From IMG/VR virus record IMGVR_UViG_3300031539_000013: 64,000 nt of DNA; one strand, given 5' to 3'. The position numbers were made by a program, and so were the translations under genes. The notes under the pieces are model-generated. The model made no database searches, was not told where the DNA came from, and was given only the letters and a program-made list of their open reading frames with translations. Positions 29,687-36,067 of the stretch are shown here, piece after piece. The DNA comes from a virus. Each line of letters opens with the position of its first letter. Position 1 is the stretch's first letter.

Positions 29687-30049
29687 TTAAATAAGCATTT
29701 TCCCCAGATATCCTGCGAGATATCCAAGTGGTTCAATAGTGCCCCCTAAATGGCAGAACTCTTTTATTCGATCCTCTAAGTGTCTTTTTTCATGACAGAG
29801 GATATTTATTCGCTGTTTCTTTGAGGTCATCCGGTATAAAATTAAAATACTCTCCTTTCGGTTGGAATGATAAAAATGATCTCCTCCATTCACCCTGGAT
29901 AAATTTGTTTTGACGTAATCTAAATCATCTTTTGACACCCCAATTGATAATAGCTGTTTTTTTACTTTTTTAAAATCTTTAACTGAGTTCGTTTCCATGA
30001 GAGTTACCTTCCACTCATAAATATCTACTTTGAATTTTTTAATCTTCAT
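29687..30049 (-). CDS. small HExxH protein (candidate mini zinc metallopeptidase)
   Basis: 120 aa with LCHEKRHLED (H-E-x-x-H) near residue 86. Confidence 0.4.
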   Translation of the reverse strand: MKIKKFKVDIYEWKVTLMETNSVKDFKKVKKQLLSIGVSKDDLDYVKTNLSRVNGGDHFYHSNRKESILILYRMTSKKQRINILCHEKRHLEDRIKEFCHLGGTIEPLGYLAGYLGKMLI

Positions 30050-30069
30050 TTATTATAGTTTTAAATCTA

Positions 30070-30102
30070 CAAATGCAAAACCTCCCCAACTCAGTAGGGA
30101 GG
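30070..30102 (-). terminator. rho-independent terminator after the radical-SAM gene
   Basis: CCTCCC (30081-30086) / GGGAGG (30097-30102) stem, followed on the minus strand by TTTTGCATTTG. A second 7-bp hairpin TTGGCTA/TAGCCAA lies at 30128-30148. Confidence 0.5.
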
Positions 30103-30188
30103 TCGCTACATTAAACAAGAAAAGCATTTGGCTATCGGCATTAGCCAACAACAAAGATAGACAATATTTGCTTCCTGTTCTCATTTTT

Positions 30189-31037
30189 TTATTCGTTAAT
30201 ACTAAATTTATACGTGTTAATTTTTTTACAATTAGCTGCTATAATAATTGGATTTGCCCATTCACGTTGAAATAAATTCCATTTTCTTTCTTTCAATACA
30301 ACACCATCTTTATCTTGATAACGCATTGCAAAAGGGAAAAATCCTGCCCTAATTGTTTGATTAATTCTTTTTTCTGCTTTTTCAATAGTATCTTTTGGAT
30401 ATCCAATCAAAACATAAGCTCTAGCCTTCCTGTTCTCCAAAGTGATATTTGCTTCTTTAAACATTTTCCCAGCTTCAATCAGTGGTTCATAATCATCAAG
30501 TGTGTCGTAGGCACAAAACAGTTCTTTAAGCCTAATGGATGTAAATAAATCAATATGCCATTGTTTTAATATCTTTGCTTCAATACCACCGCTAAATATT
30601 GCAGGTTGTTTTTGGTTTCTTAACATTTCAAAAACATCTTTTATGTGTTGATCAGAACAAGCAAGTAAATTATCATCAATTACGTTCCATCCGGACTTTA
30701 TTTTTAATTCTTTTAATTCAGATTCTCTTTTCCATACTGAACAAAACCAACATTTGTTTGGGCATCCTCTTGAAGTAATTGTATATCCTTCTTTAATATA
30801 CATACCCGGTTCAAATTCTCCACCAACTTCATTAAATGCTGGTCCTCCAATCTTAACAGGAGCAACACCCTTCCATCCCTGATATAATTTTTCTGCGATT
30901 GGAATATCCCATGTAAAAGCCACAGATATATGAATCTGATCCGCTACATCAAAAAGATCAGGCATGCGATTAATAATTACATTCTCATCAATTGGTGTTG
31001 CTTTTGTCTTTCTTGGGAATATTCTTAACACTTTCAT
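30189..31037 (-). CDS. radical SAM enzyme
   Basis: RGCPNKCWFCSV is a CxxxCxxC cluster motif at about residue 90, followed by a TIM-barrel-like alternating pattern. 282 aa. Confidence 0.7.
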   Translation of the reverse strand: MKVLRIFPRKTKATPIDENVIINRMPDLFDVADQIHISVAFTWDIPIAEKLYQGWKGVAPVKIGGPAFNEVGGEFEPGMYIKEGYTITSRGCPNKCWFCSVWKRESELKELKIKSGWNVIDDNLLACSDQHIKDVFEMLRNQKQPAIFSGGIEAKILKQWHIDLFTSIRLKELFCAYDTLDDYEPLIEAGKMFKEANITLENRKARAYVLIGYPKDTIEKAEKRINQTIRAGFFPFAMRYQDKDGVVLKERKWNLFQREWANPIIIAANCKKINTYKFSINE

Positions 31038-31249
31038 GCTTCATATTCTTTAAGTAATTTTAAAGATGCGATCATTTGAATGGTGTCTCCACTCGCTATT
31101 GCCTTTTCAGCACGGGTAATATCCCTTTGTATCATTACGGATGTGAACATACCCGCATTTTTGGGCAGTGAACGATATTCTGTAATCATTTCCCTTGCTC
31201 GATTCATTTCTTCGAGTAATCCTTCCATTAAATTTTTTACTTCTGCCAT
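31034..31249 (-). CDS. hypothetical protein (71 aa)
   Basis: Track ORF. ATGA overlap with the radical-SAM gene. Confidence 0.5.
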   Translation of the reverse strand: MAEVKNLMEGLLEEMNRAREMITEYRSLPKNAGMFTSVMIQRDITRAEKAIASGDTIQMIASLKLLKEYEA

Positions 31250-31252
31250 TTT

Positions 31253-31432
31253 TTATTTTTTAGGTAATAATTTGAAGGTTATTTTATTCTTATAGATTTT
31301 TTCTACACGAAGTCTGCTTCCTCTGACTTCAACTATTTCCCCAACTCTGAAAACTAAGGAATTTTCTTTCCCCATTTGCTCGTTGAACTTTTCTGTTGAG
31401 ATAGATTCAAATCGTCCTAGTGTGTTGTCCAT
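31253..31432 (-). CDS. small protein (59 aa)
   Basis: Below the track cut-off. MDNTLGRFESISTEKFNEQMGKENSLVFRVGEIVEVRGSRLRVEKIYKNKITFKLLPKK*. Confidence 0.4.
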   Translation of the reverse strand: MDNTLGRFESISTEKFNEQMGKENSLVFRVGEIVEVRGSRLRVEKIYKNKITFKLLPKK

Positions 31433-31450
31433 AATTTTAATTTTAAGTGA

Positions 31451-32047
31451 TTATTTAGGTAATTCAATATTATCAAGATATGGATGATCTTCTTCGTTCT
31501 TAGGTACATTTGCAAAATCTATGTCATTATAACTTTCTTGTTTTTCACCTTCTGGATTTTTGTTTTTTAAAAAAATTAAAACTTCTTCTAAGTTATCTGT
31601 TATAAGTTTTATGTTATCTGTTAACTGTTTATATACTGGGTACAGTAGAGGGGTAGGTAGAGTAACCACTTGGAGGGTAGGTTGAGGGGTAGGTTGAGGT
31701 ACAGTAGCGTCACCACCTGAGGTGCTTTTTAGTACCACTAATTTAAACAGAGGTGACTTCCATTCATTTGCTCCCTTCTTGTATTCAATCAACTCCCACG
31801 TAACCATATCGTTAACACATGCATAATATGTTTTTTTATTGCCTATGCACGAGCCTGTCATTGCTGTATCCATAGGACATTTAAACCATTCTGCCCAATT
31901 ACATCTATTATTTTGATTAACGAGAAACAAGTATAAGCTGATATGTTGTGGGGTTATTCTCAAATCGGCACTATTAAACACCCAAGAATAGAACGCTTTT
32001 ATCTGTTCAAACCCATTAATTCTATATTGATTTACCTGTGTACTCAT
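31451..32047 (-). CDS. hypothetical protein, possible DNA-binding/replisome-organiser-like protein
   Basis: 198 aa with a PQPTPQPT linker encoded by a 12-nt tandem repeat at 31676-31699. The functional guess is weak. Confidence 0.35.
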   Translation of the reverse strand: MSTQVNQYRINGFEQIKAFYSWVFNSADLRITPQHISLYLFLVNQNNRCNWAEWFKCPMDTAMTGSCIGNKKTYYACVNDMVTWELIEYKKGANEWKSPLFKLVVLKSTSGGDATVPQPTPQPTLQVVTLPTPLLYPVYKQLTDNIKLITDNLEEVLIFLKNKNPEGEKQESYNDIDFANVPKNEEDHPYLDNIELPK

Positions 32048-34679: not shown

Positions 34680-35636
34680 TTAATTAAAGACAAATTCTTC
34701 TATTGCTTTAAAGATTTGGTATGGTACATAAGGATTAACTGAGTTACCTAATGCCTTTATTTTGTCCATCCTATGGGGAACCCTTGCATTACTTCCGCAA
34801 AGTTCGGATGCAACTTCAATCCAGTTTCGTAACCAATTTGCATGCCCGGTCTGTCTCTCCTGTTCCTTTTGCCTACTTGATAAGCCATTCCGGGAGTATC
34901 CTTGTAATCCCTTGCTGATAATGTCGTTATTGATTTCAATTTCCCTGTCAGGGTTAATGTTTTCGATCTCGTCTTGTCCCCGTTGCTGTATTGATAGTTT
35001 CCTGATTCCTGACTTCTTAATGTCGGCAGGGATCTTTGAATTTGGCTTGACACACCCAAACTGCTTGTTTTCCCATTCTTGTATTTTCTTCTTGCCGTTC
35101 CGTTTTTTGTTATCACTATTTCTGTTTCGTCCTTGCACCATCTTTCTGTTGCTGTCAGAGTAAGCAATGATCCAGACCCGATCCCTTTTGTCCCATGCTC
35201 CGATGCTCGCAGATGGAATAATAAACGGCTGGACTTCATAGCCTTCACTTTCCAGCGAAGCACATATATCTTCGAGTGCCAGTTCGATGATTCCAGGAAC
35301 GTTTTCACCAACAACCCAAGGGGGCTGTATTTCCCGTATAACTCGTAACATTTCCGGCCAGAGCCAGCGAGGATCATCTTTGCCTCTTTGCTTCCCGGCA
35401 ACACTGAACCCCTGGCAGGGAAACCCGCCTGTGAGAATGTCAATGATTCCCCGATATTCTGTTCCGTCAAATTCTTTGATGTCTCCATATCTTTTTATGT
35501 TTGGGAAATTCTTTATTAACTTAGTATTACAAAATGGATCATTTTCGACTTGGAATATATTCTCCCATCCAATCCATTCGGCAGCCAGATCAAAACCACC
35601 AATTCCGGTGAAAAGACTTGCATGTTTAAAATTCAT
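34680..35636 (-). CDS. dcm: DNA (cytosine-5)-methyltransferase
   Basis: Motif I FTGIGGFD, motif IV GGFPCQGFS, motif VI ENVPG, motif VIII-like GAWDKRDRVWIIAY and motif X KALGNSVNP. The middle 125 aa are low-complexity (see the finding on the second open frame, 34757-35488). Confidence 0.85.
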   Translation of the reverse strand: MNFKHASLFTGIGGFDLAAEWIGWENIFQVENDPFCNTKLIKNFPNIKRYGDIKEFDGTEYRGIIDILTGGFPCQGFSVAGKQRGKDDPRWLWPEMLRVIREIQPPWVVGENVPGIIELALEDICASLESEGYEVQPFIIPSASIGAWDKRDRVWIIAYSDSNRKMVQGRNRNSDNKKRNGKKKIQEWENKQFGCVKPNSKIPADIKKSGIRKLSIQQRGQDEIENINPDREIEINNDIISKGLQGYSRNGLSSRQKEQERQTGHANWLRNWIEVASELCGSNARVPHRMDKIKALGNSVNPYVPYQIFKAIEEFVFN

Positions 35637-36067
35637 TCTTTTTTTCTTAACAGTGCGTACACATCTTTATTTTTATCATCATCAACGGGGAGGGAGGCTA
35701 TGCGGAAGATCATCTTACGTGGCATATCTTCGTTTGCCAGGTGACGGTTGCACTCCCATGTCTTTTGTATAACATGACGTGCTAGTTCACAGCTATTGAA
35801 CACCGCACCACCACCATAAGCCCTGCGGAGACACCACCCGTCAGTGTCATCGCGCATGATGAAGAAGTCCGATTCCGTATGCTCATCCGTATCGACAAAC
35901 ACCGACACCGAGGAAAATTCGTTATTTATGATGTCATAGAGGCCTAGCTGCCGTACCGTGTTTCTACTCAGATGGATCTCTCCCTTGTGGTAAAAACTGA
36001 TTGTAGCCACCCCCCGCGTGTTACGTGGCGATATAAACTTGCTCTTACTCAGCTTCTCAATATGCAT
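35633..36067 (-). CDS. hypothetical protein (144 aa)
   Basis: Track ORF. ATGA-type overlap with dcm. Confidence 0.5.
   Translation of the reverse strand: MHIEKLSKSKFISPRNTRGVATISFYHKGEIHLSRNTVRQLGLYDIINNEFSSVSVFVDTDEHTESDFFIMRDDTDGWCLRRAYGGGAVFNSCELARHVIQKTWECNRHLANEDMPRKMIFRIASLPVDDDKNKDVYALLRKKE

Follow-up and report, generated by a model that had tools for sequence, protein, structure and literature searches.

Minus-strand positions 34680-35636 of the IMG/VR virus record IMGVR_UViG_3300031539_000013, a stretch of 64,000 nucleotides (nt) that we refer to as the window, carry two open reading frames (ORFs), one nested inside the other. The longer, frame A, has the motifs of a Dcm-type cytosine-5 DNA methyltransferase, and the shorter, frame B, runs on the same strand in the +1 frame. 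These dual open frames are a real, conserved pair of nested genes, and the open frame B is neither a chance opening, nor a relic, nor an assembly error. Judging from sequence comparisons, the locus probably encodes a catalytic alpha chain (frame A) and a recognition beta chain (frame B) that together would form one cytosine-5 methyltransferase, a variant of the M.EcoHK31I kind. A sequence-only reading of the window had already listed both ORFs, and its coordinates and lengths matched ours exactly.

34680..35636, minus strand: frame A ORF (alpha); 318 amino acids (aa), 36.5 kDa; motifs I-VIII, low-complexity linker, motif X
34757..35488, minus strand: frame B ORF (beta); 243 aa, 27.1 kDa, isoelectric point (pI) 10.1; +1 frame, wholly within frame A

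Conservation and selection of the two frames

The longest +1 open stretch in the window gene was 245 codons, against a mean of 73 in shuffled versions, and 0/300 synonymous shuffles matched it. The longest open stretch in the third frame was 30 codons. An identical frame A protein (P0035) was found on six contigs from two sources, which excludes an assembly error. Megablast of the region against GenBank phages returned no match.

We assembled three sets of relatives: 80 viral loci and 31 metagenome loci related to frame A, and 80 genome loci seeded on motif IX of frame B. For a stop-codon profile, 94 unique loci were aligned on frame A. Over the opening ~60 columns of this alignment the +1 frame had stops at 0.02-0.09 per site; across the ~260 aligned columns that run from just before the PCQ of motif IV to motif IX it had none at all, and thereafter the rate was 0.08-0.11 per site. 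The +2 frame contained 0.05-0.1 stops per site throughout. A check suggested with the sequence-only reading was whether homologs keep both frames open: they do, and no interruption of frame B in close homologs was seen among the 94 loci.

Shuffling gave the expectation for each frame given the other. The +1 open stretch covered 78% of gene length as observed and 31% in shuffles synonymous in frame A, and in 71/85 loci none of the 300 shuffles equaled the observed +1 open length. Shuffles synonymous in frame B predicted five frame A stops per locus in the region from the target-recognition domain (TRD) to motif IX, where 81 loci had none; only 1.5% of these shuffles were stop-free. The scan seeded on frame B recovered the nested form, with frame A spanning B and carrying motif X, in 74/80 loci, which came from Bacteroidota, Bacillota, Patescibacteria, Pseudomonadota, Desulfobacterota, other phyla, and archaeal metagenome-assembled genomes (MAGs). 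Gene callers had predicted 34 frame B homologs, and the -1 frame read as Dcm in each locus examined (L001-L004, L118, and L119), with the Dcm frame of L003 broken near its N-terminus. We rejected the idea that an open +1 frame is a general property of dcm genes, as two canonical restriction-modification methyltransferase genes used as controls showed none: their +1 open stretch was 51 codons, the same as the shuffle mean.

Just past motif VIII, constraint passes from frame A to frame B. Per-site differences among 11 close relatives at frame B codon positions 1, 2, and 3 were 0.103, 0.230, and 0.162 over motifs IV-VIII, which is the A phase, and 0.201, 0.185, and 0.361 downstream of motif VIII, which is the B phase. 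Amino-acid divergence in the same relatives downstream of motif VIII was 0.435 in frame A and 0.272 in frame B, and identity over the motif IX block was 0.514 in B compared with 0.313 in A. Over motifs IV-VIII frame A is the dominant constraint. In that overlap the B identity of distant relatives was nevertheless 0.376, compared with 0.286 under a stop-free synonymous null (z=41), and A-only control regions of equal A identity had almost no excess B identity. The N-terminal half of B therefore also appears to be under selection as a protein.

Coding content of frames A and B

Frame A. Frame A matched PF00145 (E 5.6e-46, residues 3-312), phrog_363 (E 4e-70), and TIGR00675 (E 9.6e-35), and had 7985 homologs. 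The C5-methyltransferase signatures I (FxGxGG), IV (PCQ), VI (ENV), VIII (RxR), and X (GNxVxP) were all in frame A, and the motifs listed by the sequence-only reading (FTGIGGFD, GGFPCQGFS, ENVPG, GAWDKRDRVWIIAY, and KALGNSVNP) were each present. As judged from these matches, frame A is a cytosine-5 DNA methyltransferase.

35589..35612, minus strand: frame A motif I (FTGIGGFD); aligned to M.HhaI
35403..35429, minus strand: frame A motif IV (GGFPCQGFS, catalytic Cys); frame B reading AGFPARGSV
35292..35306, minus strand: frame A motif VI (ENVPG); frame B reading KTFLES
35160..35201, minus strand: frame A motif VIII region (GAWDKRDRVWIIAY); selected frame changes from A to B just downstream
34833..35159, minus strand: frame A linker, residues 160-268; K/N/R/Q-rich, stop-free
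34710..34763, minus strand: frame A motif X (KIKALGNSVNPYVPYQIF); frame B stop at its start

The alignment to M.HhaI covered frame A residues 5-161 only, corresponding to motifs I-VIII. Between motifs VIII and X the frame A polypeptide has no TRD and no motif IX, and a variable low-complexity linker is found there instead; the sequence-only reading had rightly described this tract as K/N/R/Q-rich and without an obvious TRD. The linker was hypervariable in length and sequence across the alignment of homologs, and the shortest was ~25 residues (P0062).

Frame B. Frame B has its own start signals. An A-rich stretch (AAAAAGAT) precedes its start codon, and a similar A-rich context precedes the start of frame A. 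A +1 ATG fell within a small span of the alignment (columns 46-52) in 94/94 loci, ~23 codons before PCQ. Where the frame B start column held a Tyr codon followed by G, TAT was used 41 times and TAC 6 times, compared with 323 and 403 for other Tyr codons in these genes. A Shine-Dalgarno-like motif (e.g., AAGGAG) was located 5-18 nt upstream of the frame B start in 29/32 Bacillota-like loci, with 17% expected, and there was no enrichment in the non-Bacillota loci (17% vs 19%). The non-Bacillota loci include some from Bacteroidota, a group that rarely uses Shine-Dalgarno motifs.

35486..35488, minus strand: frame B start codon; made by frame A codons TAT-G of 'RYGD'
35168..35488, minus strand: dual-coding stretch; B residues 1-107 share their DNA with frame A motifs IV-VIII
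34820..35167, minus strand: putative frame B recognition region; three units; codon-position pattern in B phase
35033-35167, minus strand: putative frame B unit; (L/I)PT(L/P)- or TL-type core
34934-35032, minus strand: putative frame B unit; (L/I)PT(L/P)- or TL-type core
34820-34933, minus strand: putative frame B unit; (L/I)PT(L/P)- or TL-type core
34760..34819, minus strand: putative frame B motif IX (LKLHPNFAEVMQGFPIGWTK); frame A reading ...ELCGSNARVPHRMD
34757-34759, minus strand: frame B stop TAA; at the start of frame A motif X

The cores with which the three units begin read LLTLTATE, SLPTLRSQ, and ITTLSARDYKD, the last of which we take to be like the TL core of recognition domains. 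Relatives had 0 to 5 such units in frame B, and the units were swapped between close relatives. LKLHPNFAEVMQGFPIGW comes after the units. KLHPNFAEVMQGFPIGW joined to the frame A KALGNSV aligned to M.HhaI 273-318 (KLHPRECARVMGYPDSY...GNSV), which spans motifs IX-X, at E 0.028, whereas the frame A reading of the motif IX bases gave no alignment to M.HhaI (E 6.6). The M.HhaI sequence in this comparison was entered by hand, and its residues 280-301 agree with the PDB alignment. Frame B also matched phrog_1008, which is labelled 'DNA methyltransferase' (E 4.3e-16, residues 11-242), and a chimera that joins A to B and back to A extended the phrog_116 match from 1-210 to 1-316, a gain of 22 bits. On these comparisons the frame B tail resembles a TRD with motif IX, which supports the earlier suggestion that real sequences of this type lie in frame B. 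Across 81 loci, the frame B stop preceded the GN of motif X by a median of 4 codons and was made from frame A codons ATA-A/G.

Around motif IX the two frames give two C-terminal motifs from the same bases. RVPHRMD in frame A and GFPIGWT in frame B do come from one stretch with an offset of one base, as the sequence-only reading had said, and across this clade one set of nucleotides reads as EPxVGRxAxGVPxRVD in A and as NPxWVEWLMGFPxGWT in B. The idea built on this, that two C-terminal motif families of phage Dcm enzymes are frameshifted readings of one sequence, was correct about the shared nucleotides here but not about the families: both motifs coexist in one gene, and we rejected them as markers of alternative enzyme families since they are two readings of that gene. 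Both motifs occurred in tandem within a single frame in L116, L117, L120, and L155.

Competing readings and unusual relatives

In the two-chain reading that we consider probable, alpha would be the catalytic large domain, containing motifs I-VIII along with X, plus a disposable low-complexity linker replacing the small domain. Translation of beta would begin at a separate start codon that lies within frame A, shifted rightward by one base. The C-terminal 136 residues of beta would supply one to several tandem target-recognition units and then motif IX, and its N-terminal ~107 residues would probably dock beta onto alpha. We infer the translation of B, heterodimer formation, methylation activity, and the docking role of the B N-terminal half from the sequences. 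'Two products from one locus' had been one of several explanations offered by the sequence-only reading, and it is supported by both frames being open, the separate ATG of B, the Shine-Dalgarno-like motif in Bacillota, and the switch of selection from A to B. More tentatively, and with a little less than even confidence, we propose that the nested beta gene is the normal, ancestral organization of a very large Dcm clade of phages, prophages, and mobile elements that extends over bacterial phyla and archaeal MAGs.

Several results weigh against the two-chain reading. The homology of the B tail to TRD and motif IX sequences had weak scores (E 0.028 in the single M.HhaI comparison and the 22-bit PHROG gain) and was undetected by Pfam, which had no match to frame B, to B-plus-X fragments, or to beta proteins with an in-frame motif X. 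NCBIfam also had no match to frame B, and nothing was found when the frame B profile was compared with PDB sequences. AlphaFold2 models of B alone had mean predicted local distance difference test (pLDDT) values of 56.7 with 31 aligned sequences and 62.3 with 79, with moderate confidence only at residues ~30-100 and ~120-150, and Foldseek of the B models against the PDB returned nothing at E <= 0.001. The viral loci were chosen by full-length similarity to frame A, which biases the test of frame A openness, although the B-seeded scan offsets this. The published predicted TRD of M.EcoHK31I is in its alpha chain, unlike the TL-type units of the window, which are in beta. A nested ORF also need not always supply a TRD, because a Listeria dcm with a nested ORF (L205, below) has a TRD of its own.

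Four relatives are informative about the connection between the frames. In L116, L117, L155, and L172, frame A ended shortly after motif VIII and B continued in frame from motif IX to X, ending in EPxxIPRVAxGxxNRxDRLKxLGN with motif X included. The presence of motif X in frame with B ties B to the enzyme. This bears on a reading we consider unlikely, in which B is a real protein with a separate function (a DNA-binding regulator or an anti-restriction factor) and A is a self-sufficient methyltransferase of low or no specificity. Such a role would suit a product that is basic (pI 10.1), belongs to no Pfam or NCBIfam family, and is constrained in its N-terminal half, and the Listeria dcm with its own TRD shows that a nested +1 ORF can accompany a complete enzyme. 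However, the motif IX signature and the TL-type units occur in the B tail where A has only a variable linker, the variants with in-frame motif X point to the enzyme, and M.EcoHK31I needs such a beta chain for activity.

A single chain made by ribosomal or transcriptional slippage, running from A (I-VIII) to B (TRD, IX) and back to A (X), or from A to B only, is improbable. The order I-VIII, TRD-IX, X is that of single-chain enzymes, the window has A-runs at both would-be junctions, and in L116, L117, and L155 one +1 shift past motif VIII would be enough to produce a canonical enzyme. The A-B-A chimera also scored above A on phrog_116, and in the PF00145 comparison that the sequence-only reading had suggested, A matched and the chimera scored slightly higher (161 vs 157.9 bits), but frame B had no match. 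On phrog_363 the chimera scored below A. The A6 run lies at 35103-35108 as first described, and the ACA AAA TAA at the B stop is present but at 34757-34765, one base off the range originally given. A run of >=6 within 120 nt after motif VIII was found in only 14/81 loci and a run of >=4 just before the B stop in 1/81, and the B stop occurred in two different frame A contexts near motif X. No conserved slippery sequence with a downstream frame open only from the shift site was found in these relatives. Slippage does not account for a frame B that is already open ~107 codons upstream of the junction and has both a conserved ATG and a Shine-Dalgarno-like motif, nor for a frame A that is open through the TRD region. 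With the runs not conserved among the 81 relatives, the proposal of A-B-A recoding at A-runs is unsupported.

Phase variation, in which homopolymer indels would switch a population between A-only and fused A-B forms, is very improbable. The A6 and A4 runs of the window and a few frameshifted loci (L112, L162, and P0024) would fit it, but the runs were not conserved, 74/80 B-seeded loci had the standard nested form, and the sequence was identical on all six contigs. It is barely credible that frame B has no function at all, being a relic in decay, an open frame that arose by chance in purine-rich DNA, or an artifact of assembly. Downstream of motif VIII the sequence is rich in A/G and poor in T (16% T), and this makes stops less frequent, yet shuffles that kept composition and protein failed to reproduce the open frames, the third frame was full of stops, and the control methyltransferase genes were open in +1 only as far as their shuffles. 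Different phyla retain the open frame, which has start signals of its own and substitutions in B phase. Conservation across phyla refutes the relic explanation raised by the sequence-only reading, and the identical sequence in independent assemblies refutes its explanation by homopolymer indel errors.

Several relatives departed from the standard arrangement. In L112 (Ga0114969_10070999), A motifs I-VI pass into B in one frame; in L162, from a Lachnospiraceae MAG, frame A passes into the last units of B; and in P0024 frame B passes into frame A before motif IX. These three could be pseudogenes, mutants, sequencing errors, or natural fusions. L099:795-1170 (also P0067, P0073, and P0082) had a frame A insertion of ~125 codons between the motif IX shadow ('ARV') and 'RIKALGN'. 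The +1 frame of this insertion contained a 117-aa HNH endonuclease-like ORF directly after the frame B stop, with matches to phrog_1271 (E 4.9e-6) and phrog_8048 (E 1.7e-5) and only weak zinc-ribbon matches in Pfam. Frame A is open across the insertion to motif X, and the ORF would therefore be a third nested gene.

L205:1462-2694, on the Listeria monocytogenes plasmid pj1-0208, is a dcm of the canonical single-chain type, with its TRD, IX, and X all in frame. It contained a 177-codon +1 ORF over motifs I-VIII, and 0/1000 synonymous shuffles were as long. The B profile does not match this ORF, which includes GMMQNG and LSDILE...KYFLS and may be a nested gene of another kind, belonging to a separate Dcm clade. 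In L206 (Bacteroides finegoldii plasmid 28, NZ_OY725930.1), frame A had in-frame TGA codons at 1549-1551 and 1669-1671, at sites where homologs have a conserved Trp (AAEWMGW and F.EWRG), and frame B was intact. The record has no annotated coding sequence over most of the gene, both TGA sites included, and the codons could mark a pseudogene or, in a phage-like element, TGA-to-Trp recoding. Frame B started at or before the frame A start in L118:2990-3900 (contig k141_545994) and in other GC-richer relatives from a more distant Dcm subtype. There the Dcm motif GYDAEW, when read in +1, gives GMMQNG, a motif widespread in 'hypothetical proteins'.

In the window itself, the frame A ATG shares ATGA with the TGA stop of an upstream 144-aa ORF (35633-36067). 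This overlap at 35633-35636 suggests translational coupling in a tightly packed minus-strand gene block. Neighboring minus-strand ORFs at 29687-32047 gave a match to phrog_9298 (radical SAM domain protein, E 8e-21) and a weak one to phrog_19658 (replication initiation protein), which fits a phage replication/DNA-metabolism module. A search of the entire window for tRNA genes found none.

Family-wide significance and comparison with known systems

At E <= 0.001 the B profile matched 47,375 cluster representatives, and at E <= 1e-30 it matched 6,112. In separate protein searches, none of the frame B matches listed had a Pfam domain or an informative name. Gene callers report either frame, and only the calls in the beta frame are without a Pfam or NCBIfam model. 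A nested arrangement of this type has been shown experimentally once, in M.EcoHK31I, and here it was present in nearly every member sampled. Its extent looks to be undescribed, with recognition units in beta, a catalytic core in which ~107 codons are dual-coding, and a family of very large size. If the two-chain reading is confirmed, short phage Dcm enzymes that seem to be missing a TRD would recognize DNA through the +1 frame of the same gene, the single known case would become the general organization of a very large family, and many thousands of 'hypothetical proteins' would gain a function. The family is also a large natural data set of two proteins sharing ~730 nt, including a conserved catalytic core, and is relevant to predicting phage methylation specificity. 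It is relevant to engineering as well, because silent recoding or codon optimization of frame A would destroy beta.

Should the nested gene also be the ancestral state of the clade, purifying selection would be acting in both frames on the ~107 dual-coding codons of motifs IV-VIII, and overprinting on the catalytic core would have given rise to the beta N-terminal domain. To our knowledge, such a dual-coding stretch would belong with the longer and more broadly conserved of the same-strand overlaps described for prokaryotes and their viruses. Tens of thousands of 'hypothetical proteins', given the 47,375 cluster representatives, would then be recognition subunits, and tandem exchangeable units would set and diversify methylation specificity.

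Phage lambda offers a known embedded pair in Rz1, a +1-frame gene with its own start inside Rz on the same strand, the products of which are thought to cooperate. Rz and Rz1 are unrelated to the proteins discussed here, and in contrast to that pair the window overlap is ~730 nt and includes a conserved enzymatic core. Among sequenced phages, those of Paenibacillus larvae (e.g., Leyra LEYRA_61/LEYRA_62, MG727701.1) have the same two-frame arrangement, with both genes annotated as 'DNA-cytosine methyltransferase'; comparative-genomics papers on these phages list the genes and leave the nesting uncommented. We found no description of a family-wide nested arrangement in the literature on overlapping or nested methyltransferase frames.

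Other cytosine-5 methyltransferases divide their motifs in comparable ways. In M.HhaI and M.HaeIII, the large domain has most of the conserved motifs, including I-VIII and X, and the small domain has the variable region and motif IX (PMC3404938). Frame A would correspond to the large domain and the B tail to the small domain, given the same division of motifs, although unlike these single-chain enzymes the window has its small-domain sequence in another frame as a separate ORF. M.AquI (Karreman and de Waard 1990) is split in the variable region into a catalytic chain with I-VIII and a recognition chain (PMC3404938). L116, L117, L155, and L172 are like M.AquI in that A ends after VIII and B carries the TRD, IX, and X. 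The window differs in having motif X on the catalytic chain and a beta ORF that starts far upstream inside the catalytic core.

The closest likeness by description is to M.EcoHK31I of E. coli (Lee, Kam and Shaw 1995; Fung et al. 2006), in which alpha and beta must associate and the beta coding sequence, in a different frame, lies completely inside that of alpha (PMC2836561, PMC3404938). Its alpha chain has motifs I-VIII, X, and a predicted TRD, its beta chain has motif IX, and N-terminal truncations of beta weaken association with alpha (PMC2836561, PMC3404938). No hit named EcoHK31I was among the matches listed in our protein searches, a search with a proteobacterial beta gave unnamed proteins only, tblastn of the B tail against plasmids found nothing, and a small E. 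coli plasmid hit (H71) considered as M.EcoHK31I was ruled out, being the Eco29kI system. The sizes are similar, with the expression plasmid names M38 and C23 (PMC2836561, PMC3404938) suggesting ~38/23 kDa, compared with 36.5/27 kDa calculated for the window. As in M.EcoHK31I, the beta ORF of the window lies inside the alpha ORF in a different frame, with I-VIII and X in alpha and IX in beta; the placement of motif IX is indicated by a weak alignment together with strong conservation (B identity 0.514). Unlike in M.EcoHK31I, the window overlap covers catalytic motifs IV-VIII, and the arrangement is general in a very large family that is mostly of phages and prophages.

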